Sequence record: OK335775.1
Reading direction: 5' to 3' (one strand)
From: Escherichia phage PSD2002
DNA length: 64,000 nucleotides
Position numbers and translations under genes: made by a program. This document shows positions 3,820 through 62,584 of this stretch, piece by piece. Every line of letters begins with the position of its first letter. The stretch's first letter is position 1. The notes beneath the pieces are model-generated. The model saw only the letters and a program-made list of their open reading frames with translations, was not told the origin of the DNA and searched no databases.

Positions 3820-3823
<4 letters not shown>

Positions 3824-4686
3824 GGGTTTCTCCTTGGTGCTGGAGGCGCTGGCTCGACAGGCACTGGAATATCTTGTGAATATGTTTGAACGGAACTTCC
3901 ATCCCATTCTTTTTCTTCTACACCTCTAGGAACCACTTCGCTATCAACCGATTCAAAATTACCTTCGGGAGCGAGTTCCTTTGAGTTAGCAAAGAAATCA
4001 AGATAAATGGTTTTAATTTCGCCTTCCATTTCTTTAACCGGAGGATATAACCATCCGTTAACCTCAAACATCATAGACCATTCTAAGCGACGACGTGAAG
4101 TGGTATCGCCTTCTAATTGTTCGTCCATTGCAATAGACTGGAACACAATACGAATATCACGGTCAAATTTAATTTCGTTTGTATAGAGTTCAGTGATTGT
4201 TGTATTAAAGTGAGGTTGGAAATAAGGCATAATCTGTTCCACAATTTGGAACATATCATCTTGGGTTCTAGTGTAAATACCCAGTTCGAAAATCATTTTA
4301 ACCGGAGTAGGAGAATATTGGCTGACACGCTTACGTGGGTCGCCATTCTCAAATTGAATTTGTGTTCTGTTTTGAAGGGCTGTTTTATATTGTGAGTTGT
4401 AAAGCATATCAACCATTTGGAGGTTCATACGCGGAAGAACTGTTTCCACTTTAGCTTTTTGTTCGGCCCGTTCTTTAGCTGTCATATTAGGATTTGGAAT
4501 ATTCTGTACTGCCGTCCATTTACCTAAGTTAGCCATAAATCTTTCTTTAGAAGCATATGTAATAGGAACCTTAATAAATTTAAGTCCTGTATCTTCTCTT
4601 TGACGTGCTACTTGAACATGGGAAAATAAATCACCCATCAAAACAATATAGCGACGTAGCGAACTATTATACCAATGTCCAAACAT
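3820..4686 (-). CDS. 15: tail sheath stabiliser/completion protein gp15
   Basis: [22 protein letters not shown]... resembles recalled T4 gp15; synteny between 14 and 16. Confidence 0.85.
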
Positions 4687-8561: not shown

Positions 8562-8570
8562 TTTTTACCC

Positions 8571-17615: not shown

Positions 17616-19574
17616 TTATATTGTAATTGGTTCCAACTCTATAGTTGTGTACTGAGGACGAAGGTCATCTTCAAATACGATTAAAGAACCGTCTTTGGTA
17701 AAGATGTTGTCTTGGTCTGGCCCTGCATAAAGTTCAATAGACTGGACTTCAAAACGATCGGAAGTAAGGCCTATTGCGGCGATATCCCAGAAAATAAAGT
17801 CCGAGTAATAATCAATTTCGCCAATAACATAGTAGACCGATTGGTCTGCAGGCGCTGCCATTTTATCAAAGTCATCTCCGGTGTAAGGTTGGATGTATTG
17901 GTTTTCAATTACATCGCCAGGTCGGAAAGGACCTATAACCATTTTACCATCGCCTCGTTCGTCTTTATCTGTGGCAACAATACGTACGTTGTAAGATTTA
18001 ACAACATCAGATACGTTTGTTGGGACGAACTCAAATTCACTAGAAGTTACAGAACGGTTGGTGTATTGATTATAGTATTTAATACCCGCTTCAGGTGTTT
18101 TGAAGAAGTTTAATACCTCGCGAACCATTGTTACCGTAGCCGAAGAGCCAAGGATACTGTGGTCTGCATTATCAATATAAGTCAGCATTTTAGACTTGGC
18201 AAATCCGTGGTTGAATATTTCAACTTCGTTAATATAATAACGGTCTATTTGGGAAAGGATTTGGGCCGTTAACCATTGTTCGGATTCCTGTAATTTGTTC
18301 AGTGCATATGAAACCTTAATTTTATGCTTCAAGAACAAGTAGTCAGGAGAAATAACCGAAGGGGTAATAGGTGCCAAGTTAAATTCTGAAAGATAATTTT
18401 GGATATCTTCGCGTTGAACCGCAGTCAAATACAATCCTGATTTAGGTTTAATGGTAACAAAGGCATAACCTGGTTTATTTGGGTCTGTAAAGGTTTGTAC
18501 TGCTTGTACAATAGAACCAAATCGCTCCGAAACGAATGTATCATAATCTGTACCGGTTACAGCACGCATCTGGGCTTCACGTTTAACTACAGCAAGTTCA
18601 CGAATACGTTCAATATCTTCAGGGTCACCACCACCGTCAGCACCTACATAATCCGGGTTTTCATCGTAGTTTTCTGTAATTTTTTCAACCGTAATATATG
18701 CCAAAGAATCCGCATAACTAAAGTCCACTGCCCCGTTAGCAACTTCACCATCTGTACGAAGGTATTCTATAACAATGGTAGCATCTTTAACAGGTTTTAA
18801 ACCACCAATATAATTAGCTTCTAATACCCCACCTGCAACTGATTTTTCAGCAACACCTTCACCAAAGAAGAATTCAGTATTACCATCTACGGTTTCACGC
18901 ATATAGTAAATTGTTGATGTACTACCAGCATGAACCATGGATTTATTAGTCCAGTTAGTCCATTCTGCGCCATCGACATAAAGTTTAACTTCCTGTCTAT
19001 CAATATCCGGGTCACGAATAAGAATAGGAGTTTTAGGGTCATACTTAAGTTCAGTACGGATAATACGACCTTGTGCTAAAGATACGATAGGAAGATATTG
19101 GTTATTAACATCACGTACGGCAATAACGTTTTCCGTGGTAACAAAAGAATACGGGTCTGCTGAAGTATCACGGGCATAGGCCAAGAATTTAGTACCACGT
19201 GGGATACGAATATTCTTTTCATTCAGGGCTTGGGTACAGGTCAACATGATACTTGTTTTGGCTGCTGATTTAGAACTTGGCAAATAGCCGTTATCCTGTG
19301 CAGCCTGGACGACGGAGGAACGCAAGTTAGCAGTACCGATGAAAGATTCATATACCGCGGTATTAGCAAACTGCTGCATATACAGGGTGTTGTAAGCTAA
19401 CATGTCAATCAGGATATTCATTCGCGAACCAACGAAATCGTAATCCTTAAATTCGTCCTGGCTAGAAAGCCAATCGATAATATTCTTTTTAATCTCTTCA
19501 AACGTAGCTCCCACAAATACTTTTGGGATAGCGTTAACGGTTCTTGTTAATTGGTAATTCGTAGGAGTAGCCAT
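17616..19574 (-). CDS. 6: baseplate wedge protein gp6
   Basis: 652 aa (T4 gp6 660 aa); synteny. Confidence 0.75.
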   Translation of the reverse strand: MATPTNYQLTRTVNAIPKVFVGATFEEIKKNIIDWLSSQDEFKDYDFVGSRMNILIDMLAYNTLYMQQFANTAVYESFIGTANLRSSVVQAAQDNGYLPSSKSAAKTSIMLTCTQALNEKNIRIPRGTKFLAYARDTSADPYSFVTTENVIAVRDVNNQYLPIVSLAQGRIIRTELKYDPKTPILIRDPDIDRQEVKLYVDGAEWTNWTNKSMVHAGSTSTIYYMRETVDGNTEFFFGEGVAEKSVAGGVLEANYIGGLKPVKDATIVIEYLRTDGEVANGAVDFSYADSLAYITVEKITENYDENPDYVGADGGGDPEDIERIRELAVVKREAQMRAVTGTDYDTFVSERFGSIVQAVQTFTDPNKPGYAFVTIKPKSGLYLTAVQREDIQNYLSEFNLAPITPSVISPDYLFLKHKIKVSYALNKLQESEQWLTAQILSQIDRYYINEVEIFNHGFAKSKMLTYIDNADHSILGSSATVTMVREVLNFFKTPEAGIKYYNQYTNRSVTSSEFEFVPTNVSDVVKSYNVRIVATDKDERGDGKMVIGPFRPGDVIENQYIQPYTGDDFDKMAAPADQSVYYVIGEIDYYSDFIFWDIAAIGLTSDRFEVQSIELYAGPDQDNIFTKDGSLIVFEDDLRPQYTTIELEPITI

Positions 19575-19575
19575 T

Positions 19576-21663
19576 TTAATTCCTAGTAGGAGATTCTAAA
19601 CAAGGTATGCAAATGGAAAGGGATGGAAATGCAATCGTTAAACCGAATATTCCCAGCATCTTATTAATCCATTGTACCACCTTACTTAAGGATAATGTTG
19701 ATATTTGGTTATACATTGATTTGCACAAGTCTTTCATTGACCTGGAACCATCAGTAAATTCGTGATATAAAGATTTTGCTTTAGTTACTGAGTTCTCGTA
19801 TATAACCATGATATCATCTACAGTAGCTCCGAGCATACCGAGAAGTTCTTCCATTTGAGCCACAATAGGAAGTTTTTTGAATTCTTCTAAAGCCATATCT
19901 AATACATCAGAAACGGAGGTTTGACTTTCGGTAATAGAGTTCTTAATCTGATTATATTTATTCTTTAAAAGTTCGAGTGCAGCTTCAGCTTGTGCTAATG
20001 CGGCTTCCTTCTGAGCAGTTAGCTCGTCTGTAACTTTTTCGTACATTCCTGAAAGATATTGTTTAAATTCAATAGCTTGTTTTTGTACTTCTTGCTTTTT
20101 GAGCTTAATCTCATTCCACAGATTGAGTGCCTGGGTTTTAAGAGCCTCAATCATTGCATAAGCTTCGTCTATTTTCTGGTCTACCTTTTCCATAACCATT
20201 TGATAAACATCTGATGCTGTGAATCCTGGAAAGTTACCGCTCATTATCATGTCCAGTGGTTTAACTTGCTTCATCATTTCCTTGACCGCAGTAATAACGC
20301 TCCAAACTGGGTTCGGAACTATAGGAGGCATACTCCATATTTGAGCGAGGTCTACACACAGTTTTGATAATGCAACACCAGCCATAAGCAATTGAGACCA
20401 GGCCCAGTCATACAAGTCTGTAATTGCATCAATAAGGTCACGCGAATACATCTTGACGCGTTCAACCGAATAATCGTATGCAGACCCAATGGCAGAATAA
20501 ATCGATTGGATGGTTTCTTCTAAATTAAAGTTTTTCCATGCTTCTTTTAATTTCTGTACACCATCACCTGAAGTGCAGAGGTCTTCTAGGTCAATAGTCA
20601 TGCCCATAATAGTAATCGAGGGTAAAAAGCTTTTAAGTAAGTCCCACCCACCGCCAACAATATCCAAGACCTGTGATATGGCATCTTTAAATGCAAGAAA
20701 AGCCATTTGCTGAACATATTGACACATAGCAACAGCTGAGTTGCCTAGCTCTTCCATTGCGACCGATAGCTTACTATAACCAGAATCGAAGAATTTTTCC
20801 CAATCGGTTCCACCAGATGATGGCCATCCAGGGAGCATATCCCAATATAATTTGAATGAATTCCTAGATGTATTCCATGAAGCCATAATCGCATTGGTCA
20901 ATCCGTTGTAAGGGAATTCCGCTGTAAAAGGAACACAGCTTATTGCCCTGGCTCGCCCGGTTATTTCTGGCGGTAAAGACCCGATGGATACCGGTCCCGG
21001 AATCGGAGTTCCTGGGATACTCATATCAACATCTAGATTTAATACCAGTCCAACATAAGTACAAGGTTTTGTCTCATAGTACTTCAAATAAGCCCTGCGG
21101 GAGTCACCAAGGCCGTTAAAGTTGACATACATATGATAATCAGCCGTAACTGCAATCATCGTCCTGGGGTCCATTCTGGGGCCTTGTGATGTCCATACAC
21201 CGCCACAGTTTTCGATGCGATACATATCATATTCAATAGATGTTTTATACAATACAGATTTTGATAAATCAGCGCCGTACCAATCATTACCGGGCAAAAG
21301 AGTTGCACCAATCGATTCTACATAATTTTCTAAATCCAATTGCGTAATAAAGAATATTCCGAGTTTAGCACACCAGATACCTTGACTTGTTCCATCTTCC
21401 GGTGGGGGAGGTGCAGGAAAAGTTTCGGACTTATTACCAAATGGATTTTGTGTGTATAAATGTGTAGCTAGTGGAATAATCTCGGTATCCCATTCAACGC
21501 CATTCCCAGGTTGAATAAAAGCACCTGTTGGGTTATATAATTCCCATTTAACCCGGCGATATTCACCGGGTCCTACTGCGTCATCACAGGGACTTGTTAC
21601 AGTCCCTACCACTTCATCAACTTTATCGTAGTAATTCATATTAACCGACCTGTACGTTGCCAC
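19576..21663 (-). CDS. unrecognised 695-aa protein in the baseplate operon (Cys-containing N-terminal domain, long coiled coil, C-terminal hydrophobic segment)
   Basis: Long ORF; start overlaps gene 5 end by 23 nt and stop abuts gene 6; no match to any T4 core protein I can recall; occupies the slot of T4 5.1-5.4. Confidence 0.6.
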   Translation of the reverse strand: MATYRSVNMNYYDKVDEVVGTVTSPCDDAVGPGEYRRVKWELYNPTGAFIQPGNGVEWDTEIIPLATHLYTQNPFGNKSETFPAPPPPEDGTSQGIWCAKLGIFFITQLDLENYVESIGATLLPGNDWYGADLSKSVLYKTSIEYDMYRIENCGGVWTSQGPRMDPRTMIAVTADYHMYVNFNGLGDSRRAYLKYYETKPCTYVGLVLNLDVDMSIPGTPIPGPVSIGSLPPEITGRARAISCVPFTAEFPYNGLTNAIMASWNTSRNSFKLYWDMLPGWPSSGGTDWEKFFDSGYSKLSVAMEELGNSAVAMCQYVQQMAFLAFKDAISQVLDIVGGGWDLLKSFLPSITIMGMTIDLEDLCTSGDGVQKLKEAWKNFNLEETIQSIYSAIGSAYDYSVERVKMYSRDLIDAITDLYDWAWSQLLMAGVALSKLCVDLAQIWSMPPIVPNPVWSVITAVKEMMKQVKPLDMIMSGNFPGFTASDVYQMVMEKVDQKIDEAYAMIEALKTQALNLWNEIKLKKQEVQKQAIEFKQYLSGMYEKVTDELTAQKEAALAQAEAALELLKNKYNQIKNSITESQTSVSDVLDMALEEFKKLPIVAQMEELLGMLGATVDDIMVIYENSVTKAKSLYHEFTDGSRSMKDLCKSMYNQISTLSLSKVVQWINKMLGIFGLTIAFPSLSICIPCLESPTRN

Positions 21664-23428
21664 CAGATACTTTAGCTAATGAACCGCCATCCATATGCAC
21701 AGTATTTGATGCGTTTAAATTAATGTTCGTCGCTGCAAAATTTAAATCTTGTTCGACATTTACATCCATATTTTGAGCATTGATTGTGGCCTTTTGTTTA
21801 ACGCTTATATCTGCATTCTGGTTGACATTAACTGTTGTATCTTTTTCAACCGTAATATATGCTTCTTGTTCAACAGTTATATCAGCAGTACCCATAATAA
21901 CTATTTTAACATTTCCTTTAACAAGCAGAGTTCCATTACCTTCTACAGTTTTGGTTTCATTCCCTCGAATATGAATGCTTTCAGACCCATCAGTTTGACG
22001 GCGCACGTTTGCCATATTATAATAGGTTTCATCGCCACCAACGTTGACTTTATTATTACCACCAACATAAGTATTTGAATCGCCTTGGGTCATATAATAA
22101 CCATCGGCTACCGTCTTAGAAGTTTTACGTCCATCAGGAGCAACTTCTTCATAACTACCGGTAGGATGGATTAAACGGTATCGTTCTTGCCCTGGGGTAT
22201 TATCGAATTCTTGGATATGCCCGCCTTCAGTTTGCATGGTTTGGACATATGGATATTCGCCTTTATAACTAGAATCAGGTTCTTTAAAAAGAATCCTTGT
22301 GTCTTCTGGAGTCCACGGGTCGGCAGGGTCTGAATTTGTAGGGGCCACAAAGGTTTGAATCATTCTATACGAACGGCCATTAAATGACCTTTCTTTAGGG
22401 GCCATAATACCATATGATTCCATGTTACCTGTGAGGATAATCATTGACACCCTTGATGCGCGACCTTTAGTTTGGTTAAACCATACCGAATTACGGGCTT
22501 CTTCAAATGCCTTTTTATAATCGCCTATTAACATTGCACTAAGCATTCCACGGAATTTAGCAAGCCCACCTAATCCCATTTGGAAAGCCATGTTTTCAAG
22601 AGCCATTTGTCTCGAACGGTTTTCTTTATTATAAACAGGACCTACAACACTATGCAGGCCTATATCATTTTGGACTTTTTTAAGGTCGTCTTGGAATAAT
22701 TTAGAAACCTCGTCCATTGATATTGCACCAGGGTTACCTTTAACTTCTCGTCCTACCTGATTAGATAATATTTTGTTTATTTGATTCATATCTCTAATAG
22801 GTTGTGGCGTAATAAGGTGACCTATACCTATAGTAGGATAACCTTCGGTATCCCAATATACCTTCAGTCTAAGCCCTTCATCACGATGAAGCATGTTTTC
22901 TATTGTGAAATTAGGATTATCATCAGGCTTGACTTGGCTCAAATCCAAACCGTCTGGGTTAATACCTACATCGGTGTTTGCATCTTGTATTACGTTGGAA
23001 GTGGCATCATATCCAACTTCACCACCTCGGTTTAAAGCCGCGGCATCATTACCTAAATAAAGTGGGTATTGACCTGTCGGGTCGCTAAAACCTTCATTAG
23101 GATTAGCCTTTTGTCTTGAAGCGGAACCGTATGTACCAAGGACCAGTCCGTTTAATTTCCACTTATCAAGAAAATGCCCATAAACCTGTGTACCAGGAAC
23201 CATACCGGTCATGGCGGTTTGAATACCTGAAACAGAGGCTGAAGATGTAGGCATTAATACCGACATCCATGGTAAATCTTCTGTACGAAGGCCTTTTACT
23301 GGACCTTGCACTTTTTCGTATGGATGCATGCCCCATACGCGCACGCGTACTCGGCCTTGTTGGAGTGGGTCCATTCGGTCTTCAACTACGCCGACGAACC
23401 AACTGACATTATCAGACATGTTAATCAT
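21641..23428 (-). CDS. 5: baseplate hub / tail lysozyme gp5
   Basis: 595 aa; N-terminal NVSWFVGVVEDRMDPLQQGRVRVRVWGMHP and lysozyme segment YWDTEGYPTIGIGHLI match recalled T4 gp5. Confidence 0.9.
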   Translation of the reverse strand: MINMSDNVSWFVGVVEDRMDPLQQGRVRVRVWGMHPYEKVQGPVKGLRTEDLPWMSVLMPTSSASVSGIQTAMTGMVPGTQVYGHFLDKWKLNGLVLGTYGSASRQKANPNEGFSDPTGQYPLYLGNDAAALNRGGEVGYDATSNVIQDANTDVGINPDGLDLSQVKPDDNPNFTIENMLHRDEGLRLKVYWDTEGYPTIGIGHLITPQPIRDMNQINKILSNQVGREVKGNPGAISMDEVSKLFQDDLKKVQNDIGLHSVVGPVYNKENRSRQMALENMAFQMGLGGLAKFRGMLSAMLIGDYKKAFEEARNSVWFNQTKGRASRVSMIILTGNMESYGIMAPKERSFNGRSYRMIQTFVAPTNSDPADPWTPEDTRILFKEPDSSYKGEYPYVQTMQTEGGHIQEFDNTPGQERYRLIHPTGSYEEVAPDGRKTSKTVADGYYMTQGDSNTYVGGNNKVNVGGDETYYNMANVRRQTDGSESIHIRGNETKTVEGNGTLLVKGNVKIVIMGTADITVEQEAYITVEKDTTVNVNQNADISVKQKATINAQNMDVNVEQDLNFAATNINLNASNTVHMDGGSLAKVSGGNVQVG

Positions 23429-24030
23429 TAGAGGGCTTTCTCCATTTCTCTAATTAAAGCGGAAACAAAGGACTCGATGTCATTAGGGTCTATAATCTTT
23501 ATTTCGCGCTTATATTCATTTTTACGAATGGCGTCCTCGTAAATATCTACTGCAGCCAAAGGACCTTCATATTGAGGATAACGTTTTTCTGTATCACCTT
23601 TATCGTACCAAGTATAAGGATTTTCCGGAGTATTTACTAGATTCCAGAATTTCTCACCCTTTTCATTGACATGATAAAGGACTTGGTTTCCGCCTGCAGT
23701 AGCATAACGTTGAATAGCTGCTTGATACGCAGATTCTTGGCCTGTAATCCAGCCGTAATAAGGGTCATATACGTTATTACACATCAATAAAACCCAATAT
23801 AATTGCACGTTACCATAAAGTTGATGGGCTAATTCTTCTGGACGAGGGGCCCCACTGATATAATATGTTTTAAGTGTATAATTTTTAGCCACTTTATCAA
23901 AATATTCTTTATAGTTTCTAAATATATCAGTCATCGGTACGCTCAGTACATCGGCATCAGTTAATGAGCCGGAATCTGGCTTGACTGTTTTTGATTCGTA
24001 ATTTATAGGATCGAAAAATGAGAAGAGCAT
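23428..24030 (-). CDS. 53: baseplate wedge protein gp53
   Basis: 200 aa (T4 gp53 196 aa); immediately upstream of gene 5; SD GGAGG. Confidence 0.75.
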   Translation of the reverse strand: MLFSFFDPINYESKTVKPDSGSLTDADVLSVPMTDIFRNYKEYFDKVAKNYTLKTYYISGAPRPEELAHQLYGNVQLYWVLLMCNNVYDPYYGWITGQESAYQAAIQRYATAGGNQVLYHVNEKGEKFWNLVNTPENPYTWYDKGDTEKRYPQYEGPLAAVDIYEDAIRKNEYKREIKIIDPNDIESFVSALIREMEKAL

Positions 24031-24075
24031 AGTGCCTCCGAGTATAAATAATATTAATATTTATAAGGAGGCACT
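24031..24075. promoter_or_regulatory. palindromic divergent late-promoter region (TATAAATA on both strands) with mirrored GGAGGCACT-ATG ribosome sites for genes 53 and 4
   Basis: AGTGCCTCC GAGTATAAATAATATTAATATTTATAA GGAGGCACT: 9-bp perfect inverted flanks, plus-strand TATAAATA 24043-24050, minus-strand TATAAATA 24058-24065. Confidence 0.7.
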
Positions 24076-24525
24076 ATGGCCTACTCAGGGAAATTTAAAC
24101 CTACAAACTTACAAAAATATAAAGGTGATTGGAAGAAAATCCAATATCGTTCCTCTTGGGAAGCATGGCTTATGCGTTGGCTTGACAACCATCCTAATGT
24201 CGTCCAGTGGAACTCGGAAGAGGTTGTGATTCCATATTTTAGTAACGCTGATGGAAAGAAACGTCGGTATTTTATGGACTTCTGGGTGAAGTTCGACAAT
24301 GGTCAACAATTCTTTTTCGAAGTCAAACCTTTTAAAGAGACCCATCCTCCAGCGGCGCCTGCTAAAATGACTACAGCTGCTAAAAAGAGATATATCAACG
24401 AACATTATACATGGAGTGTAAATAAAGATAAATGGAAAGCTGCTAAAGCTACAGCAGATAAAATGGGAATTAATTTCAGATTGATTACCGAAAACTCACT
24501 GAAAAAATTAGGATGGAAAGGATGA
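24076..24525 (+). CDS. 4: head completion protein gp4
   Basis: 149 aa (T4 gp4 150 aa); synteny 53/4/2/3/1. Confidence 0.75.
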
Positions 24526-25349
24526 GTATATTTTCTTACATCAACGAGGCTACTGAAACTACAAAAGGTTCCAAGCCTACTCGTTCAGAACAACAATGGA
24601 TAACTTTAGGCGTTGAATATGCCAACGCTAAGGCTAAAGGTGTTTCGGCTAAGAAATTCGCTGAAGATAAAGGCATCAAGTATTCTAGCTTTACATCTGC
24701 GATGTCTCGATACTCGAGTCGAATTAAAACTGCTGTACAGGTTGAAAAACTTCAGAAGAAACCTGGCAATAAATTAACCAAAGCCGAACGTCAATTAATT
24801 TTGGTGAATAGTTTTAGAAAGAGTATTCGCGATAAGATTGCTAACGAAGGCGCTGCCGTAAACAATAAATCAGCTAAATGGTTTACAGAAACATTAAAGA
24901 AAGGAATTCGTGGACACCAGGTATCTAAACCGTCTCCTGGTAAGCTTTATGCTTATATCTATGATGCCAAACATAAGGATACCCTACCATACTGGGACAA
25001 ATATCCTTTAATAATTTATCTTGGGTTAGGTAAGCATAATTTAATGTACGGACTGAACTTACACTATATTCCACCTAAAGCACGTCAGCAATTTCTGGAA
25101 GAATTGCTGAAGCAATACGCGAGTACGCCTACCATTACGAACTCGACTAAATTAAAAATCGATTGGAGTAAGGTAAAAGGATTCGCTGGCGCCGACGTGA
25201 TGATTAAGGCTTATATCCCTGGAAATATTAAGGGACCTTTAGTAGAGATAAAACCGTCTGATTGGGCTAATGTCGTAATGATGCCGCTCCAACAGTTCAT
25301 GTCTAAAGGCAAGCGTTATTCAGCTCAGAAAGTATGGAAGAATTCATAA
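24522..25349 (+). CDS. 2: DNA end protector protein gp2
   Basis: 275 aa from the ATG with better-spaced SD (T4 gp2 274 aa); synteny. Confidence 0.75.
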
Positions 25350-25431
25350 TCTATTATCCCAGCCAGTTATTGAATGGAACAGACCTAGGACCATTATACA
25401 CTGTCTGGGACTTAAGCAATATAGGAACCCT

Positions 25432-26022
25432 ATGAACGGTTTATTTAACCAAACTAACACTACTAACTTTATCTTAGAGGTTAGTGACGCAGGAATGACG
25501 CAGGCATTCAAATTGAACGTACAAGATGTAACACTACCGGGTATCCATATTCCGGTCTCAGACGTCCCGGGATCGACCCAGGGCATACATCGTGCTAAGC
25601 TGCCAGGTTCTACGGTAGAATTCGATCCATTGATTGTGAACTTTCTTGTAGACCGTGAATTGAAATCATGGCTTGATGTTTATAAGTGGATGTTGTCATT
25701 AAACAACTATGTAACCCATGATTCAGAAGCCTGGCACCCTAAAGGACAACCGGAAGCTATCACCCTCCACATCCTTGATAACAACAAACAAAAAATCGTA
25801 ATGAGCATTCATTACTACGGTGGTTGGCCATCTGACCTCTCGGAAATCCAGTACTCTTATAAAGAGGATTCTGACCCGGCGATAATCGCCACAGCAACAT
25901 TCAACTTCAAATCGTTTGCTGTAGAAATAGATGGTACAATAGTTACAGGTCGTCCACAAATTGATTCGTATGCCGAACAACGAGTGGCTCGTATGTCTAT
26001 GCATCCATCTATGAGAAAATAA
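25432..26022 (+). CDS. 3: tail completion / tail tube terminator gp3
   Basis: 196 aa; synteny between genes 2 and 1; SD AGGAA. Confidence 0.7.
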   Translation: MNGLFNQTNTTNFILEVSDAGMTQAFKLNVQDVTLPGIHIPVSDVPGSTQGIHRAKLPGSTVEFDPLIVNFLVDRELKSWLDVYKWMLSLNNYVTHDSEAWHPKGQPEAITLHILDNNKQKIVMSIHYYGGWPSDLSEIQYSYKEDSDPAIIATATFNFKSFAVEIDGTIVTGRPQIDSYAEQRVARMSMHPSMRK

Positions 26023-26772
26023 TGAAACTAATATCAATTGTAGGAATCAAACGTAGCGGTAAGGATACCGTTGCTAACTATGTAATCGAAAATATGGATT
26101 CGGTAAAATTTCAGCTCGCAGGTCCTATTAAAAAGTATCTGGCTGAAGCCTATGAATACATCTCTGATGACCCTGTATTCGACCGTAGTTACATGCCTAA
26201 ACTAGATTTTAACTGTTTTGAAGGTATCGGTTACGACCGTGAAGAAATCCTTCCTTTAAAACCAGATGATGTGATTGATATCTTTGAACATGCTATTGTC
26301 AAACTGAATAATATCCTTCCTATTCCAGGAATTGATACCGTAACTACGTATCATTATGGTCCTACCATTCAATATCTGTCTGAAGAAACAAAAGACCAAC
26401 TGTTTGAAGTAATAAATAAAAATAACAATTGGTCAGTACGTCGTCTCATGCAGACCCTTGGGACTGATATTATTGTTAACCAATTTGATAAGATGTATTG
26501 GGTTAAGTTGTTCGCTTTAGACTATTTTGATAAAATATACTCTGATGCGAAATACTATGTCGTACCTGATGTTCGTCAAACACACGAAATTGATTCGCTC
26601 AGAGCGATGGGTGCTACGATTATTCATGTAGTTCGCGCTGAAACCGGTCAAGTACAAGACTCGCACATCACTGAAGCGGGTCTACCAATTTTACCCGGTG
26701 ACGTTGTTATTGAAAATAACGGCACTCTTTCTGAACTATACACCACTATTGATAAATTATTAGGAAATAAAA

Positions 26773-26780
<8 letters not shown>
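26022..26780 (+). CDS. 1: deoxynucleoside monophosphate kinase
   Basis: MKLISIVGIKRSGKDT...WSVRRLMQTLGTDIIVNQFDKMYWVKLFALDY...MGATIIHVVR matches recalled T4 gp1. Confidence 0.92.
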
Positions 26781-27473
<693 letters not shown>

Positions 27474-29797: not shown

Positions 29798-29874
29798 GGC
29801 CCTGTAGCTCAATGGTTAGCAGCAGTCCCCTCATAAGGGAAAGGTTACCAGTTCAAATCTGGTCCGGGTCACCA
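29798..29874 (+). tRNA. tRNA, anticodon CAU (Met, or Ile if lysidine-modified)
   Basis: Hand-folded cloverleaf: acceptor GGCCCTG/CCGGGTC, D-loop AATGGTTAG, anticodon loop CU-CAU-AA, T-arm ACCAG-TTCAAAT-CTGGT, encoded CCA. Confidence 0.7.
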
Positions 29875-29879
29875 ACTAT

Positions 29880-29954
29880 GTCCCGCTGGTGTAATGGATA
29901 GCATACGATCCTTCTAAGTTTGCGGTCCTGGTTCGATCCCAGGGCGGGATACCA
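29880..29954 (+). tRNA. tRNA-Arg (anticodon UCU)
   Basis: Hand-folded: acceptor GTCCCGC/GCGGGAT, anticodon loop CU-UCU-AA, T-arm CCTGG-TTCGATC-CCAGG, encoded CCA; T4 also encodes tRNA-Arg(UCU). Confidence 0.75.
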
Positions 29955-55209: not shown

Positions 55210-55473
55210 ATGTTTAAAGTTTATGGTTATGATTCAAATATTCACCGTTGTGTTTTCTGCGATAATGCCAAACGTCTGCTTGATGTTAAGAAACAATCTT
55301 ACGAATTCATTAACGTGATGCCGGAAAAAGGCGTATTTGATGATGAGAAGATTGCTGAACTCTTGACTGCTCTTGGACGTGAATCTCAGGTAGGTTTGAC
55401 TATGCCTCAGGTATTTGCTCCTGATGGAAGTCATATTGGTGGCTTTGACCAACTGCGAGCATACTTCAAATGA
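55210..55473 (+). CDS. nrdC: glutaredoxin/thioredoxin NrdC
   Basis: MFKVYGYDSNIHRCVFCDNAKRLL...LTMPQVFAPDGSHIGGFDQLRAYFK matches recalled T4 NrdC. Confidence 0.92.
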   Translation: MFKVYGYDSNIHRCVFCDNAKRLLDVKKQSYEFINVMPEKGVFDDEKIAELLTALGRESQVGLTMPQVFAPDGSHIGGFDQLRAYFK

Positions 55474-56364: not shown

Positions 56365-56838
56365 ATGTTGTTGACCGGCAAATTATACAAAGAAGAAAAA
56401 CAAAAACTTTATGATGCACAATGTGGTAAGTGTTTGATTTGTAAACGTGAATTAAACCCTGATGTTCAAAGTAACCACCTTGACCACGACCATGAATTGA
56501 ACGGGCCAAAAGCCGGTAAGGTTCGTGGTTTACTATGTAACCTGTGCAATGCTGCAGAAGGACAAATGAAGCATAAGTTCAACCGTTCTGGTCTTAAAGG
56601 TCAAAACGTTGACTACCTCGAATGGTTAGAGAATTTGCTGGTCTATCTGAAAGCTGATTATACTGAAAACAATATTCATCCTAATTTCGTTCCTGATAAA
56701 ACCAAAGAGTTCAGCAGGTTAGGTAAGGAAGAAATGATTGCTGAAATGCTTTCACATGGAATGACTTATAATGAATCTGACACTAAGAAACAAATGGTCG
56801 ATTCATTTAAAAAACAACTGAGGAAATCGCTTAAATGA
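56365..56838 (+). CDS. 49: endonuclease VII (Holliday junction resolvase)
   Basis: 157 aa; MLLTGKLYKEEKQKLYDAQCGKCLICKRELNPDVQSNHLDHDHELNGPKAGKVRGLLCNLCNAAEGQ matches recalled T4 gp49. Confidence 0.95.
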   Translation: MLLTGKLYKEEKQKLYDAQCGKCLICKRELNPDVQSNHLDHDHELNGPKAGKVRGLLCNLCNAAEGQMKHKFNRSGLKGQNVDYLEWLENLLVYLKADYTENNIHPNFVPDKTKEFSRLGKEEMIAEMLSHGMTYNESDTKKQMVDSFKKQLRKSLK

Positions 56839-56944
56839 TTAATTTTTATGCCTTAACCGAATCCATGAATGATATTATCCGGCGCATGGGTGTTGAGTAT
56901 CCTGCTCAATGGTTATTTGTTGTAACTAATACGTGGACTATCGT

Positions 56945-57160
56945 ATGAACAAATTTCGTAATGCTGTTTCCGATATCCTGGCCAATATTACATTTGCCTT
57001 GTTTATCGTGTGCCTTTTAATCCTGGTCATCCCGTTTGGATTACTGTTTGTTATTATCGGTGCCCTGAGTACTGAAAAAGGTCTTGAAGGGTCTGAGTTC
57101 GAAAAACGAATCCAGTCTGTTCATGGTGTTATTTCTAAAATGATGAAGGTGAAAGAATGA
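56945..57160 (+). CDS. small membrane protein
   Basis: ORF from MNKFRNAVSDILANITFALFIVCLLILVIPFGLLFVIIGAL. Confidence 0.45.
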   Translation: MNKFRNAVSDILANITFALFIVCLLILVIPFGLLFVIIGALSTEKGLEGSEFEKRIQSVHGVISKMMKVKE

Positions 57161-57453
57161 AACGTTTTGAAGAATATGTAGCTTTGAATTGGACCGCTTG
57201 GGACAAGTTTGGTGATGATTGGTACTTCCATGACTGTGACCTGAACCCGGAATTCTTTAAAGGTAAGGAAGACGACCTCAAGGACATCTATGCTCTGTCA
57301 GAGATTCATGGTATTAAACCTACTGTCTATTTCTCTTTTGATGATACTGGGTTCCTTGTACAGGTTTACGTTCCATACGGAACTAATGAAGACGAAGTTC
57401 TAAAAACCTGGGACTACCAAGGAGTTATTTCCTGTGGACCAAAAGTTAACTAA
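57157..57453 (+). CDS. hypothetical protein
   Basis: 98-aa ORF. Confidence 0.45.
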   Translation: MKRFEEYVALNWTAWDKFGDDWYFHDCDLNPEFFKGKEDDLKDIYALSEIHGIKPTVYFSFDDTGFLVQVYVPYGTNEDEVLKTWDYQGVISCGPKVN

Positions 57454-57751
57454 AATTGAGATTTACGGTATCCCTGAGACAGTCATGCGCTGTCCAGGGT
57501 GCATTGCTGTTCTATCGCTCCTAAATTCCCTTTCTATCCCACATACTTTCTATCCTGTGATTAACCAGACGCCGTCAGGCGCAGTATATGACAAGCCTCT
57601 TATAGTATCATTGGCCAAACGTGCAGGCTTCAAGAGCTTAGCGATACGCTATCCTGTCATATTTGTCGATAATAAGAAAATAGAAAATATTCCTGCCTTC
57701 AAATCGCTTTTGATTGAACTTGGTTATGACCGAGATTTAATTGAAGATTAG
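57434..57751 (+). CDS. glutaredoxin/NrdH-like redoxin (CPGC motif)
   Basis: KIEIYGIPETVMRCPGC; GTG start per ORF track. Confidence 0.45.
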   Translation: MDQKLTKIEIYGIPETVMRCPGCIAVLSLLNSLSIPHTFYPVINQTPSGAVYDKPLIVSLAKRAGFKSLAIRYPVIFVDNKKIENIPAFKSLLIELGYDRDLIED

Positions 57752-57752
57752 T

Positions 57753-57805
57753 GTTTACTTCCTCTCCTCACGTGTTATAGTCTATCCTATCAACACATGA
57801 GGAGA
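57753..57805 (+). promoter_or_regulatory. early promoter cassette (variant) with inverted repeat TCCTCACGTG/CACATGAGGA
   Basis: GTTTAC 57753-57758; TGTTATAGTCTATCCTATCAA; SD GAGGAG. Confidence 0.55.
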
Positions 57806-57810
57806 ACATT

Positions 57811-57993
57811 ATGACTATCCAAGATAAAGAAATTAAAGTCGACCAGTATTATTCAGTAAATGGCTACCCTGTTCAAGTAACAAAGGTAACAAATCTCGAT
57901 GTATGGTATCAACCTTTGACTCACCCTGATGCTCCATTGATGGTGTGCGACCGTTCTTTATTTTGTTCAGTAGCAAAGGAAATTAAATCATGA
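57811..57993 (+). CDS. hypothetical protein
   Basis: 60-aa ORF. Confidence 0.4.
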   Translation: MTIQDKEIKVDQYYSVNGYPVQVTKVTNLDVWYQPLTHPDAPLMVCDRSLFCSVAKEIKS

Positions 57994-58244
57994 GTCTGAA
58001 ATTACATTCAATGAAAAATATCATTACCCTTAATCTGGATGATGAGCGCCTGATTTTTCTCACTGTCACTGATAAGAATATTGAAATCGCCAACGGCCCG
58101 AAAACTTATTGCTGTCCTGTTAAGAATTGGAAACGTGTAACATTTCTTACTCTGGCTGAACGCCTGAAAGATATTAAGTTAGATTTGGATGTCAAAGATG
58201 TCCAATACATTAAAAATCTTATTGGATACAAACTGCTGAGGTAA
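57990..58244 (+). CDS. hypothetical protein
   Basis: 84-aa ORF. Confidence 0.4.
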   Translation: MSLKLHSMKNIITLNLDDERLIFLTVTDKNIEIANGPKTYCCPVKNWKRVTFLTLAERLKDIKLDLDVKDVQYIKNLIGYKLLR

Positions 58245-58246
58245 CT

Positions 58247-58540
58247 ATGGGTAAAACTATCCGTCGTAAAGAATTGTCTGTAAAAGATTTTTATTATTCC
58301 GGACGCCGTAAAGCACCTGACGGCGTAAGTCAGGATTTGGTTGAAGAAAATATCTTCCGTTCTGACAAGTGGAAACGTATGCGCGGTGTTGATTCTGAAG
58401 TTAAGAACGAAATGAACCGCCAGCTTCGTAAAGAAGTGAGAAAGCTGAAAAAAGATGTTTACAATGACGATGAACCTGATTACAATACTTCTCATCAAGT
58501 TGCAAAACGTAAATCAAACGAGTGCTATCGTTACAGCTGA
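58247..58540 (+). CDS. hypothetical basic protein
   Basis: 97-aa ORF, Lys/Arg-rich. Confidence 0.45.
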   Translation: MGKTIRRKELSVKDFYYSGRRKAPDGVSQDLVEENIFRSDKWKRMRGVDSEVKNEMNRQLRKEVRKLKKDVYNDDEPDYNTSHQVAKRKSNECYRYS

Positions 58541-58547
58541 GGAAAAT

Positions 58548-58679
58548 ATGAATATTAAACGAATGCTTTTTAAGCAAGGGTTATATACTTTAAATGTTAC
58601 TCCAAAAGGCGATACAACCAAGTGGTCAGTAAATGACTGGGTTAAATTCATTGATGAAAACGGTAACTGGAAAATTTAA
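58548..58679 (+). CDS. hypothetical small protein
   Basis: ORF from MNIKRMLFKQ after SD GAGGAA. Confidence 0.4.
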   Translation: MNIKRMLFKQGLYTLNVTPKGDTTKWSVNDWVKFIDENGNWKI

Positions 58680-58880
58680 ATGAACCCTGAATCTAAATTA
58701 TCACAGCGAATCGCCGAATCTCGTCGTCAGTTCTTTGAAAATATGATAGCCCAAGGTATTGATGACGAAGTTTTTCTGAACTGGTTTTGGAATCACAAAT
58801 ATTCAAGTTGCTCAGGTGCTTTGTTAATTTCCGCAGCAATGATGTACGAAGGTTGGAAAGGCGCCAAAGCACAAAAATAG
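58680..58880 (+). CDS. hypothetical protein
   Basis: 66-aa ORF. Confidence 0.4.
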   Translation: MNPESKLSQRIAESRRQFFENMIAQGIDDEVFLNWFWNHKYSSCSGALLISAAMMYEGWKGAKAQK

Positions 58881-58909
58881 TTTACAAACTCTTGGGACCA
58901 GAGTATAAT
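58880..58909 (+). promoter_or_regulatory. early promoter (GTTTAC -35, GAGTATAAT -10) with flanking GGACC/GGTCC inverted repeat
   Basis: GTTTAC 58880-58885; TATAAT 58904-58909. Confidence 0.5.
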
Positions 58910-58947
58910 GGTCCTACGGATTATAAATTTTAACTGAGGAAATTATT

Positions 58948-59277
58948 ATGTCACAAGCTATTAAAAACGTACTGAACTCTTTCGCTTTCGATAAAGTAAA
59001 TGAACTGATGAATACAGGTTTTGTGACTCCTGAAATTCTCGACCAATGGGTTGCTGAACTGTTACCAATCATGCACTCTAAAGACCAGAAAATTGGTAAG
59101 AATGGTATTCGTGAAATCCTGGTTCAATATATCCTTGATGAATTCGATGTCGCTGCCTTTGGTGTCGAATCCAAAGCTTGGCACCCAGGTGAAATCACGG
59201 ATAAAACTATCCGTCGTATGAAAAACCAACGTAAGAAAAAATTCGTTGACCTGAAAATTGTTAAGGCAGCGAAATGA
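58948..59277 (+). CDS. hypothetical protein
   Basis: 109-aa ORF starting MSQAI; 5' cassette shared with 51681 ORF. Confidence 0.45.
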   Translation: MSQAIKNVLNSFAFDKVNELMNTGFVTPEILDQWVAELLPIMHSKDQKIGKNGIREILVQYILDEFDVAAFGVESKAWHPGEITDKTIRRMKNQRKKKFVDLKIVKAAK

Positions 59278-59540
59278 TTAAAATAAAACTCTCTAATTAC
59301 GATAAAAACTTGGAAATGATTGCTATGAAAGAAGAACTCTTGAATGATGTCCGCTTTACAGGTTATGCAGTTCAATTTAATGGTGATGGGACTCTCCAGA
59401 TTGAGGGTGACCACTTTATCATCGAATACGAATTTAAACAGTATTGGCTGTATGCAAAAGATGAGGTTGGCGGTGTTGATTACGTCGACGAGTTCGATAA
59501 CCTAGATGATGCCTTGGAAGGAGCTCGATTCCTACAATGA
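59274..59540 (+). CDS. hypothetical protein
   Basis: 88-aa ORF. Confidence 0.4.
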   Translation: MIKIKLSNYDKNLEMIAMKEELLNDVRFTGYAVQFNGDGTLQIEGDHFIIEYEFKQYWLYAKDEVGGVDYVDEFDNLDDALEGARFLQ

Positions 59541-59800
59541 AACCCATATCCACCACCCTCGCCTACGAAGGTCTCGGATTTTTCTTAATAGATAACTGTA
59601 TGGATGTTGAGTTTGTTTGTGGTGAGACTTCTTTAGTATGGAAGTCTCATATTTCCAAATACAACCATCGTGAATATCCAAGTCTTTTTAAAGAATTTTG
59701 TGGATATATGTCTGAACACGGGTGTACTGATACAATTTCTTATTCCGAGTTCACACAAATCCTTGAAACAGTATTTCAGGCTTATTGCTTACTCCGTTGA
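59537..59800 (+). CDS. hypothetical protein
   Basis: 87-aa ORF. Confidence 0.4.
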   Translation: MKPISTTLAYEGLGFFLIDNCMDVEFVCGETSLVWKSHISKYNHREYPSLFKEFCGYMSEHGCTDTISYSEFTQILETVFQAYCLLR

Positions 59801-59866
59801 TGCTTTAAAAGGGTCTTCAAATACTATGATATAATAGACCTATGATTTGAGTTATCTGAGGTAACA

Positions 59867-60424
59867 ATGACCGAAATTAAACTGACTAAAAATAACTATG
59901 TAAATAATAAGGAGCTTCTGAAAGCTATTACCCAATGGAAAACAGAGCTCAGAGAAAATACCGATCCTAATAAAATAGTTCGCCAGAACGACGTTATTGG
60001 CTTGGCTATTATGCTCATTGCTGAAGGACTAAGTAAACGTTTCAACTTCTCAGGGTATACCCAATCCTGGAAGCAAGAAATGATTGCTGATGGAATCGAA
60101 GCTTCTATTAAAGGTCTTCACAACTTCGACGAAACAAAATACGACAACCCACATGCATATATCACTATGGCTTGTTTTAATGCCTTCGTTCAGCGTATCA
60201 AAAAAGAACGTAAAGAAATGGCAAAGAAATATAGCTACTTCGTCCATAATGTCTATGACAGTAATGATGACGACATGGTAGGTATTGCAGATGAAACCTT
60301 TATCCAAGATATCTACGACAAAATGACTCAGTATGAAACCTCTTTAACTAAAGCACCAGGGTCTGATAAGAGTGCCGAACCTAAAGTCGGTGAACTGGAT
60401 TTTTTATATGGAACATCAGATTAA
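59867..60424 (+). CDS. 55: late-transcription sigma factor gp55
   Basis: [19 protein letters not shown]...[54 protein letters not shown] matches recalled T4 gp55. Confidence 0.95.
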
Positions 60425-60638
60425 TATCACTCCACTTTTAGATGGAATGGAAGACTTCGAAGCACTCCCTTATTTTATTAAATTGATATTACGGGATGTT
60501 AAAGGTCTTCCTATTGATATTGACCCACTTAACGTCAGGAATATTGAATTCACTTCTCCTGACAATAACGTAGATTACCGTTATCATGTTGAGAACGCTA
60601 ATTTCTACTTCACTATTGAATTGACTCCAAAGGATTAA
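60408..60638 (+). CDS. hypothetical protein
   Basis: ORF from [10 protein letters not shown]. Confidence 0.4.
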
Positions 60639-60639
60639 T

Positions 60640-60951
60640 ATGCAAAGCCATGACATTTCTCAATTGACTGATGAGCAAATTGAAGAAGCCCAGCAACGTT
60701 TAGAAGAGCACAATATTAAAGAAGCTAATTCTCAAGCGGCTAAGATTCTTAAGAAGAATGCTCGTGAAATCCGTCGTTTAAATCTCCATGCCCAAGGCGC
60801 TGTACTTGAAAACAACTTTGAAGCATATAAGTACGCTTTAATTAAATTACGTGGTATTTACCGTCAACCTGTTACTGATGAACTTGTTCAATTGATGTGG
60901 GAATCTACCCGCAAACAAATTTGGGAAATCGTCAATGGCTCTAGTAAATAA
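60640..60951 (+). CDS. hypothetical protein
   Basis: 103-aa ORF. Confidence 0.45.
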   Translation: MQSHDISQLTDEQIEEAQQRLEEHNIKEANSQAAKILKKNAREIRRLNLHAQGAVLENNFEAYKYALIKLRGIYRQPVTDELVQLMWESTRKQIWEIVNGSSK

Positions 60952-61135
60952 ACCCTTTAAACGGCTTCTTATTGGAGCCGCCTTTAGACTTCGCTCATAC
61001 GGTAATATCTGTATTAAGCAGTCCGAAACCGAATACAAAATGGTCGGCCAGTATTCCGATGGAATTTTTCGGATTGAGCCCGTAGCCAAGGTTTGGGTAG
61101 ATTCTCATCAACTTAAGAAATGGTGGCAGAGATGA
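60935..61135 (+). CDS. hypothetical protein
   Basis: 66-aa ORF. Confidence 0.35.
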   Translation: MALVNKPFKRLLIGAAFRLRSYGNICIKQSETEYKMVGQYSDGIFRIEPVAKVWVDSHQLKKWWQR

Positions 61136-61356
61136 TAACATGGACTGCAGGCTAATGAATGACGAATACGAAAAAGTTTAAGAGGTTGTATGAATGACGA
61201 ATTCGATGGATTTTGATAAGATTAAATCTGACAAAAATGAGATGATACTTCAATTTGAAGCCGCTCGTATTAAAGCAGAAAATGAAGGTACTATTACCTA
61301 TAAGCCTATCAAGTTCAGGTCTAATCACGAACCTCTGTACGGTGTATTAGTTGGTA

Positions 61357-61378
61357 AAGGAGCTTAGGCTCCTTTTTT
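61357..61378 (+). terminator. rho-independent terminator
   Basis: AAGGAGC-ttag-GCTCCTT followed by TTTTT. Confidence 0.7.
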
Positions 61379-61421
61379 GCTTTATATTTGGATGATAAAA
61401 TGAACCAACTGAGGAGAACAT

Positions 61422-61565
61422 ATGGAACTACTTTTAGGATATGTCGTGTTATTCATGGCATTCTACACATTCACACGAGCTTGTTGGATAGGATTCTTTT
61501 CCACTCCTGACGGGTTCATTTCAATAATTTTATTTTGCATTGCAATAACGGCGCTTGGCTTATGA
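61422..61565 (+). CDS. possible small membrane protein
   Basis: 47-aa hydrophobic ORF with SD GAGGAG, ATGA overlap with gene 47. Confidence 0.3.
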   Translation: MELLLGYVVLFMAFYTFTRACWIGFFSTPDGFISIILFCIAITALGL

Positions 61566-62584
61566 AAATATTAAACACAGGTGACTGGCACCTTGGAGTG
61601 AAGGCCGATGATGTGTGGGTACAAAATATCCAACGTCAAGGTATCCAAGACGCTATTAATTATTCTAAAGCAAATGGCATTACTGTGTGGATTCAATACG
61701 GTGATATCTTTGACGTTCGTAAAGCAATTACCCATAAGTGTATGGAATTCGCTCGCGAAATCTCCGATTTGCTTAAAGCCAACGGCATTACCATGTATAC
61801 GGTCGTTGGTAACCATGATATGCACTACAAAAACACATTGACTCCGAACGCTGCTTCTGAAGTTCTGGGTAAATATGACCATATCAAGGTTATTGAGAAA
61901 CCTACTACTGTTAATTTTGATGGCACTGAAATTGATTTGATTCCATGGATGTGTGAAGAAAACACGACCGATATCATGGACCATATCAAAAATACCACAG
62001 CAGATTTCTGTATTGGCCACTGGGAATTAAATGGTTTCTATTTCTATAAAGGAATGAAATCACATGGTTTAGAACCTGATTTCCTTAAGAAGTATAAGCA
62101 AGTATGGTCTGGTCACTTCCACACCATTTCTGATGCAGCAAACGTTAAGTATATTGGTACGCCATGGACCCTGACTGCTGGTGATGAGAACGACCCTCGC
62201 GGCTTCTGGATTTTCGATACAGAAACTCATAAGATGGATTTTGTCATCAATGAAACCTGTTGGCACCGTAAGATTCATTATCCAAATGCGACTATCGATT
62301 ACAAAGATTTTACAAATATCGCAGTTCGTGTTATAGTCGATAAAATCGATGATGGCCTTACTAAGTTCGAATCTGAACTTGAAAAGGTTGTCCACTCTTT
62401 ACGTATTGTGTCTAAGGTAGATAACAGCGTTGATATCGATGATTCTGAAGAGGAAGATGAAGTTAAGTCCCTCTTGGATATGATGTATGATTATATCGAT
62501 GCCCTTCCTGATGGCCACACTGAAGACGATGTTAAAGCCCTTAAGACTATGGCTGCACAACTTTATAATGAGGTTACACGATGA
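61562..62584 (+). CDS. 47: recombination endonuclease subunit gp47 (Mre11-like)
   Basis: MKILNTGDWHLGVK...WIQYGDIFDVRKAITHK...VVGNHDMHYKN matches recalled T4 gp47; start trimmed to MKIL. Confidence 0.95.
   Translation: MKILNTGDWHLGVKADDVWVQNIQRQGIQDAINYSKANGITVWIQYGDIFDVRKAITHKCMEFAREISDLLKANGITMYTVVGNHDMHYKNTLTPNAASEVLGKYDHIKVIEKPTTVNFDGTEIDLIPWMCEENTTDIMDHIKNTTADFCIGHWELNGFYFYKGMKSHGLEPDFLKKYKQVWSGHFHTISDAANVKYIGTPWTLTAGDENDPRGFWIFDTETHKMDFVINETCWHRKIHYPNATIDYKDFTNIAVRVIVDKIDDGLTKFESELEKVVHSLRIVSKVDNSVDIDDSEEEDEVKSLLDMMYDYIDALPDGHTEDDVKALKTMAAQLYNEVTR

Follow-up and report, generated by a model that had tools for sequence, protein, structure and literature searches.

The 64,000-nucleotide stretch of Escherichia phage PSD2002 analyzed here (sequence record OK335775.1; hereafter the window) includes, between genes 49 and 47, the region in which phage T4 encodes the anaerobic ribonucleotide reductase (RNR) genes nrdD and nrdG and the alpha-glucosyltransferase gene a-gt. 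At 56839-61561, the '55.x' and 'a-gt.x' clusters of small early T4 genes are found in their standard Dhakavirus form, and none of these three genes is present. The genome very probably belongs to a JS98-like phage with a standard Dhakavirus region, in which the nrdD-nrdG and a-gt modules are missing and an RB69-like arabinosylation of 5-hydroxycytosine (5hoC) is used instead. The absence of glucosyltransferases, the restriction to class I RNR and the predicted 5hoC are already published (Petrov et al., 2010; Dwivedi et al., 2013; Lee et al., 2026); the only additions made here are the nucleotide-level boundary of the missing cassette and the count of genomes that share its junction.

Gene Content Between Genes 49 and 47

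Checked against T4, the positions given for these genes in the initial annotation are correct, the T4 order being 49, nrdD (interrupted by the I-TevII group I intron), mobC, nrdG, 55.8, nrdH, 55.6-55.1, 55, a-gt.5-a-gt.2, mobB, a-gt, 47.1 and 47. The anchors 49, 55 and 47, as well as 55.8, nrdH, 55.6-55.1, a-gt.5-a-gt.2 and 47.1, have the same order and orientation in the window; in T4, 49 and 55.8 are additionally separated by nrdD, mobC and nrdG, and a-gt.2 and 47.1 by mobB and a-gt, whereas the window has three RB69-type small genes not found in T4 (ORF082c-, ORF079c- and ORF072c-like). The region comprises the following features, where aa denotes amino acids and ORF an open reading frame:

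56365-56838, + strand: gene 49, endonuclease VII, left anchor; 88% identity to T4 gp49 over 157 aa (tblastn), Pfam Endonuclease_7 and Endonuc-dimeris
56835-56948, + strand: conserved 37-aa ORF of the RB32 ORF074c / SP18_gp076 type; phrog_3350, E 8e-24
56945-57160, + strand: 55.8, predicted membrane protein; 42% identity to T4 55.8, E 2e-12, phrog_1930; alternative GTG start at 56933
57157-57453, + strand: RB69 ORF082c-like small gene, absent from T4; phrog_2749, E 5e-48, equivalent to JS98 orf73
57434-57751, + strand: nrdH, glutaredoxin/thioredoxin-like redoxin with a CPGC motif; 61% identity to T4 NrdH over 103 aa, E 9e-38, phrog_22 thioredoxin domain
57811-57993, + strand: 55.6; phrog_2283, E 2e-32, equivalent to JS98 55.6
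57990-58244, + strand: RB69 ORF079c-like gene (DUF7290); Pfam PF23962, E 4e-43
58247-58540, + strand: 55.5 (DUF5499); Pfam PF17603, E 2e-45
58548-58679, + strand: 55.4 (DUF5484); Pfam PF17583, E 9e-35
58680-58880, + strand: 55.3 (DUF5490); Pfam PF17593, E 4e-36
58948-59277, + strand: 55.2 (DUF7570), 109 aa, the largest ORF of the 49-55 interval; Pfam PF24454, E 9e-39
59274-59540, + strand: 55.1 (DUF5495); Pfam PF17599, E 3e-20
59537-59800, + strand: RB69 ORF072c-like gene (DUF7200); Pfam PF23830, E 8e-33
59867-60424, + strand: gene 55, late sigma factor, middle anchor; 79% identity to T4 gp55 over 186 aa (tblastn)
60408-60638, + strand: a-gt.5 (DUF5491); Pfam PF17595, E 2e-14, phrog_1169
60640-60951, + strand: a-gt.4 (DUF2654), 103 aa; Pfam PF10849, E 4e-23
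60935-61135, + strand: a-gt.3; phrog_1648, E 3e-29
61194-61367, + strand: a-gt.2 (DUF5486); Pfam PF17588, E 2e-19
61368-61421, no strand: 54-bp spacer, the site of mobB and a-gt (~2.1 kb) by comparison with T4
61422-61565, + strand: 47.1, small predicted membrane protein; phrog_6693, E 2e-30, equivalent to JS98 47.1
61562-62584, + strand: gene 47, SbcD-like recombination nuclease subunit, right anchor; 70% identity to T4 gp47 over 341 aa (tblastn)

The 49-55 interval (56839-59866, 3028 bp) holds twelve + strand genes encoding 37, 71-75, 98, 105, 60, 84, 97, 43, 66, 109, 88 and 87 aa, which cover 2827 bp (93%); the 55-47 interval (60425-61561, 1137 bp) holds five genes encoding 76, 103, 66, 57 and 47 aa, which cover 1024 bp (90%). 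These counts agree with the original observation that the former interval (about 3 kb) contains only ORFs of 37-109 aa and the latter (about 1.1 kb) only ORFs of 103 aa or fewer. Coding coverages of 93% and 90% leave no space where an overlooked large gene or an extensive pseudogene could lie. Every + strand ORF of both intervals could be assigned to a Pfam or PHROG family, and all except the 37-aa ORF correspond one-to-one to genes annotated in JS98 (55.8, nrdH, 55.6-55.1, a-gt.5-a-gt.2, 47.1 and the three RB69-type ORFs). Two minus-strand ORFs, of 130 aa (58106-58498) and 96 aa (59124-59414), were taken as spurious because they are antisense to genes with family support.

The possible NrdH-like redoxin noticed earlier is borne out by its identity to T4 NrdH, its syntenic position between 55.8 and 55.6, and its CxxC motif in the form CPGC; this ORF (57434-57751) has no Pfam match at E ≤ 0.01. 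The retention of nrdH without nrdD and nrdG suggests that the redoxin does not serve the anaerobic enzyme exclusively. Rfam and promoter and terminator scans of the region revealed nothing unusual, promoter-like sites being at shuffle expectation; a sigma-70-like match (11/12 matches) is located at 58881-58909, upstream of 55.2, and the one good terminator-like hairpin of the region (61356-61375) follows a-gt.2.

Searches for Anaerobic RNR and Glucosyltransferase Genes

Both exons of T4 NrdD, RB69 NrdD, T4 and RB69 NrdG, the T4 alpha- and beta-glucosyltransferases (a-gt and b-gt) and RB69 gp3 were used as tblastn queries with a cut-off of E ≤ 0.01 against the 64-kb window, the complete JS98 genome, and positions 1-36000 and 96001-169936 of WG01, which represent all of this genome outside its window-equivalent part. 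In these targets, no match at the cut-off was obtained for the glycyl-radical enzyme NrdD (~600 aa), for its radical-SAM activase NrdG (~156 aa), or for gp3. For the two glucosyltransferases, which are GT-B proteins of 350-400 aa, every match in the window or JS98 had an E-value of 0.06 or above, and the searched part of WG01 yielded none at E ≤ 0.01. No remnants of nrdD, nrdG or a-gt were detectable, the best tblastn matches having E-values of 0.036 or worse and lying at unrelated positions or on the wrong strand. For instance, a match of T4 NrdD exon 2 at 61158-60973 on the minus strand (E 0.036) is antisense to a-gt.3, and a match of T4 a-gt falls inside gene 5 (E 0.066); both were taken as chance. 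The result is one of presence or absence rather than a statistical one. A Pfam search of ten larger early-region ORFs of the window (181-377 aa) identified no glycosyltransferase or glycyl-radical domain.

The annotations of JS98 and WG01 list nrdA, nrdB, nrdC and nrdH, and do not list nrdD or nrdG. An independent survey based on hidden Markov models assigns class I (nrdB-nrdA) to JS98 and IME08 and class I+III to T4 and RB69 (Dwivedi et al., 2013; PMC3653736, supplementary table), and JS98 was reported to have no glucosyltransferase homologs (Petrov et al., 2010). On the evidence of the window, of JS98, of WG01 outside the window-equivalent part and of the class-I-only survey entry, the suggestion that the phage lacks its own anaerobic RNR is thus the right reading.

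The nrdD-nrdG Junction

The 37-aa ORF (56835-56948) starts at an ATGA that overlaps the stop codon of gene 49, which is exactly the start site of nrdD in T4 and RB69; therefore, the difference between the two arrangements is precisely nrdD plus nrdG. In RB69, the order 49, nrdD, nrdG, 55.8, ORF082c, nrdH is that of the window plus the two reductase genes. The junction in the window reads TTAAATGATTAATTTTTATG. In RB69 and the phages SP18 and UPEC07, the 49/nrdD junction reads AAAATGA, and that of nrdG with the 37-aa ORF, which in these genomes begins at an ATG overlapping the nrdG stop, reads CATGATTAA. The nrdD-nrdG pair is missing from the window as an exact cassette, with breakpoints in the shared ATGA stop/start overlap. 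Since the downstream gene starts at an ATGA over the upstream stop in both arrangements, translational coupling is maintained over the junction.

The possibility that the 37-aa ORF is a remnant of nrdD or nrdG was rejected, as it represents a conserved small ORF that follows nrdG elsewhere. It is annotated in some records only, such as SP18_gp076 ('similar to RB32 ORF074c'). The version in the window equals in length the version found in the cassette-bearing genomes of RB69, SP18 and UPEC07, with 12 of 37 residues identical (32%), and this strong divergence argues that the arrangement without the cassette is old. The ORF is unannotated in the JS98, RB69 and T4 records; in T4, the homologous 37-aa frame is apparently interrupted, its TTTTC differing by one base from the TTTTTC of RB69.

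The cassette-less junction is present in 47 phage records (at least 80% coverage), which are Dhakaviruses and the Gapriverviruses VR5, VR7 and VR26, and nrdD-nrdG lies at exactly the 49/55.8 site in RB69, SP18 and UPEC07. Because Tequatrovirus, Mosigvirus and some Gapriverviruses all carry the cassette at this one site, its loss in the Dhakavirus lineage is the more parsimonious reading. SP18 and UPEC07, which belong to the sister genus Gaprivervirus, have flanking genes 76-91% identical to those of the window and the same order of small genes, but carry nrdD-nrdG. The SP18 block from gp49 through nrdD and nrdG to the 37-aa ORF shares 91% identity with RB69, whereas most alignable downstream genes are ~70% and gene 55 is 78% identical; recombinational exchange of the cassette would produce this pattern, and so would stronger conservation of the enzyme genes.

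Some Dhakavirus relatives, in contrast to the window, carry additional genes for GIY-YIG endonucleases, located in the slot of gene 49 or in that of a-gt. The former slot is occupied in several of them by a 357-aa SegE-type GIY-YIG protein (E33 locus 3278-4351), with further occupants at locus positions 2557-3630 (LQ5), 2495-3568 (a further relative) and 1930-2745 (Bp7). A tblastn search limited to these loci of 6-20 kb found no gp49 in E33, LQ5, Bp7 or the further relative. In T4, the endonuclease VII encoded by gene 49 is essential for packaging.

The a-gt Slot

The distance between a-gt.2 and 47.1 is 54 bp in the window, whereas the slot filled by mobB and a-gt in T4 measures ~2.1 kb. RB69 resembles the window, having 69 bp between a-gt.2 and 47 and no a-gt there. 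The presence of a-gt was described as limited to 'T-even type phages only' (Petrov et al., 2010), and a-gt together with the neighboring homing-endonuclease gene mobB represents a Tequatrovirus-specific addition, absent from RB69 too. GIY-YIG-like ORFs are found in this slot in QL01 (205 aa, locus 8378-8995) and LQ5 (284 aa, locus 8131-8985), with weak Pfam matches (E 0.003 and 0.02). Insertions have recurred at this site, and a-gt is its Tequatrovirus-specific occupant.

Affiliation of the Phage

Judged by its sequence, the window derives from a JS98-like, T4-type coliphage of the genus Dhakavirus (Straboviridae, Tevenvirinae). The segment from gene 49 to gene 47 (56365-62584, 6.2 kb) has a DNA identity of 96.5% to WG01, 96.9% to LHE83 and 92.5% to JS98, with JS10 and IME08 also among its 92-97% matches, and a 25-kb upstream stretch matches the same relatives at 93-96%. 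This high nucleotide identity is accompanied by collinearity and by a gene-by-gene correspondence with the JS98 annotation, and the G+C content of ~39% is as in JS98-type phages. The window begins with gene 17 (terminase), continues with the baseplate genes and then the early region, and ends at gene 46; its + strand is the reverse of the usual orientation of the T4 and JS98 records. From 49 to 47, the window has the same genes in the same order as JS98, JS10, IME08, WG01 and LHE83, although no record is identical to the window; all five share its cassette-less 49/37-aa-ORF/55.8 junction and have a similarly empty a-gt slot.

The genome is a mosaic of known Dhakaviruses: positions 19400-21800 are 100% identical to phage E33, and the identity to any database record, E33 included, is at most 97% at 53-64 kb. 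A 695-aa ORF of unknown function (19576-21663, - strand; phrog_5296) is located between gp5 and gp6, in the position of a spike tip, a place taken in JS98 by the small genes 5.1 and 5.4. This gene is fully covered in only 11 records, including E33 (100% identical), Bp7, WG01, LHE83 and SP18. At 29798-29954, Rfam and ARAGORN detected two tRNA genes only, Met-CAT and Arg-TCT; the JS98 annotation has three there (Arg, Asn, Met).

Predicted Cytosine Modification

The modification genes lie between uvsX and gene 43, ~12-16 kb past the right end of the window, and were therefore assessed in relatives. A gene 42 of the T4 type is absent from JS98 and WG01, whose thymidylate-synthase homolog (JS98 orf39, WG01 ORF43; Pfam Thymidylat_synt in the former) shows 79-80% identity to RB69 gp48 and 24-25% to T4 gp42. 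In the alignment, JS98 orf39, WG01 ORF43 and RB69 gp48 have the motif RSQN, that is, the substitution D169N, where T4 gp42 has RSND and true thymidylate synthases have RSVD. All the aligned enzymes specific for deoxycytidine monophosphate (dCMP) have an Asp at the N177 position, equivalent to N177D (an LDF motif in JS98 orf39 and WG01 ORF43). RB69 gp48 converts dCMP to 5-hydroxy-dCMP with an oxygen atom derived from O2, as demonstrated by 18O2 labeling, and RB69 DNA contains arabinosylated 5hoC, not arabinosyl-hydroxymethylcytosine; an Asn at the position of D169 in Escherichia coli ThyA was proposed as a potential diagnostic residue, and Dhakaviruses were named among the predicted 5hoC makers (Lee et al., 2026; PMC13326640).

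Other genes of the RB69 pathway were also recognized in the uvsX-43 cluster of JS98 and WG01. These include homologs of gp46:47 (putative arabinosyltransferase 1; 63-70% identity), in which Pfam found no domain, and of gp52:53 (sugar kinase/nucleotidyltransferase; 41-44% identity), as well as homologs of gp45 (nucleotide kinase) and gp51 (phosphatase). JS98 orf42 has the Pfam domains NTP_transferase and APH. Six contigs encode a gp46.2 identical to that of the window; in five of them, a 557-aa NTP_transferase/APH gene adjoins imm and gene 43, the position of this gene is not reached by the sixth locus, and none of the six has nrdD or nrdG within the 20 kb shown. The cluster spans 22069-26804 in the JS98 locus and 21952-26663 in the WG01 locus, and a 166-aa ORF of unknown function adjoins imm in the Dhakavirus cluster.

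RB69 (Mosigvirus) shares with the window the genes ORF072c, ORF079c and ORF082c and has a 5hoC/arabinose cluster with homologs in Dhakavirus relatives; it differs in keeping nrdD-nrdG at the 49/55.8 site and in having gp3, gp50 and gp55, which have no homologs in JS98 and WG01. Because the gp48 homolog of the relatives is 79-80% identical to the RB69 enzyme and carries D169N, the DNA of the phage probably contains arabinosylated 5hoC rather than glucosylated hydroxymethylcytosine. The initial annotation had raised the possibility of a different hydroxymethylcytosine modification scheme, of which the different scheme stands, but the modified base is probably 5hoC. In the proposed pathway, hydroxymethylcytosine would not be glucosylated by the phage, and cytosine would most likely be replaced by 5hoC, as in RB69: 5-hydroxy-dCMP would be made by the flavin- and O2-dependent thymidylate-synthase homolog, and 5hoC would then be arabinosylated on the DNA by one glycosyltransferase, for which the bifunctional kinase/nucleotidyltransferase presumably supplies nucleoside diphosphate arabinose.

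Several observations weigh against this interpretation. The window shows 64 kb of a genome of ~170 kb, and both the absence of the genes elsewhere and the 5hoC cluster are extrapolated from relatives of a mosaic genome, the remaining 106 kb being inferred to resemble them. A very distant or non-homologous glycosyltransferase would escape tblastn. JS98 and WG01 have no homologs of RB69 gp3 (the second arabinosyltransferase), gp50 or gp55 (arabinose-5-phosphate isomerase), and for this reason the sugar decoration is perhaps simpler than in RB69; the sugar pattern, and even the sugar itself, may differ. Arabinose-5-phosphate may possibly come from host isomerases. Chemical analysis of any Dhakavirus DNA was not found in the searchable literature, and the papers on IME08 and LHE83 contain no statement on DNA modification or RNR.

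Alternative Explanations

Another explanation connects the two traits: the synthesis of 5hoC needs O2, so there would be no anaerobic replication, and a class III RNR would be useless and lost for this reason. The origin of the 5hoC oxygen atom from O2 (18O2 labeling; PMC13326640) and the combination, in Dhakaviruses, of a 5-hydroxy-dCMP-synthase homolog with the absence of nrdD-nrdG are in line with it. However, RB69 makes 5hoC yet keeps nrdD-nrdG, and the Gapriverviruses, which are reported to have no gene 42 homolog (PMC12115623), are polymorphic for the cassette. With the synthase and the cassette both in RB69 and this polymorphism in Gapriverviruses, 5hoC synthesis and nrdD-nrdG absence are therefore not coupled across genera; on this distribution, simple O2 coupling was rated weak as the cause of the loss, and we consider it improbable. 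A broader proposal appears equally doubtful, namely that Dhakaviruses are obligately O2-dependent replicators, in which a useless class III RNR was cleanly lost, and that they carry mono-pentosylated 5hoC; the latter part is suggested by the presence of only one RB69-type arabinosyltransferase and no arabinose-5-phosphate isomerase.

As an alternative to the absence of the genes, the initial annotation had allowed for nrdD, nrdG and a glucosyltransferase being carried elsewhere, which would place them at non-syntenic sites in the ~106 kb beyond the window. The window covers gp17 to gp46 only, the genome is mosaic relative to its database relatives, and in the sister genus the cassette is indeed gained by recombination, SP18 and UPEC07 having nrdD-nrdG and VR5, VR7 and VR26 lacking it. 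Nevertheless, such a relocation is very unlikely: no tblastn match at E ≤ 0.01 exists in the rest of the window, in the whole of JS98 or in WG01 outside the window-equivalent part, the survey credits JS98 and IME08 with class I RNR alone (PMC3653736), and nrdD-nrdG, wherever present in the Tevenvirinae examined, is at 49/55.8, a site that is intact and empty here.

There is similarly little probability that the phage DNA contains plain, unglycosylated hydroxymethylcytosine, an option left open by Petrov et al. (2010), who assigned the thymidylate-synthase homolog of JS98 to the gene 42 alleles and detected no glucosyltransferase; the occurrence of alc, denB and gene 56 in JS98 also speaks for this option. 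The homologs in JS98 and WG01 are, however, far closer to RB69 gp48 than to T4 gp42 and carry D169N, the demonstrated product of RB69 gp48 is 5-hydroxy-dCMP rather than hydroxymethyl-dCMP (PMC13326640), and the relatives retain a gp46:47-like transferase and a gp52:53-like sugar-activation gene.

Finally, a recent private deletion in this genome, or an assembly artifact, has a negligible probability: although the breakpoints lie in a 4-nt repeat (ATGA), a microhomology of the kind that deletions use, this explanation is refuted by the 47 independent phage records with the same junction, and both the 32% amino-acid identity of the 37-aa ORF to its cassette-bearing version, indicative of an old arrangement, and the equally empty a-gt site of RB69 and JS98 speak against it.

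Implications for Nucleotide Supply and DNA Modification

The absence of the nrdD-nrdG and a-gt modules from a standard Dhakavirus region, combined with a predicted RB69-like arabinosylation of 5hoC, has little significance beyond correct annotation, with a few practical and biological consequences. Glucosylated hydroxymethylcytosine should not be assumed when restriction enzymes, sequencing chemistry or CRISPR tools are chosen for this phage. At the genomic level, nrdD-nrdG represents a cleanly excisable cassette, which is bounded by stop/start overlaps and is polymorphic between sister genera.

The relatives encode the aerobic reductase NrdAB, the thioredoxin NrdC, NrdH, dCTPase, dCMP deaminase, thymidylate synthase, dNMP kinase and host-DNA nucleases; among these genes, nrdC (55210-55473) and nrdH are located within the window. 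The phage would accordingly obtain deoxynucleoside triphosphates (dNTPs) from its own NrdAB, encoded elsewhere in the relatives, and from nucleotides salvaged from degraded host DNA, and in the absence of oxygen its dNTP supply would proceed via the host NrdDG. Because its own class III enzyme is missing, and following established T4 nucleotide metabolism, we infer that under anoxia the phage would be dependent on the host NrdDG and on salvage. Thus, in anaerobic settings such as the gut, the dNTP supply of this phage would rest on the host reductase.

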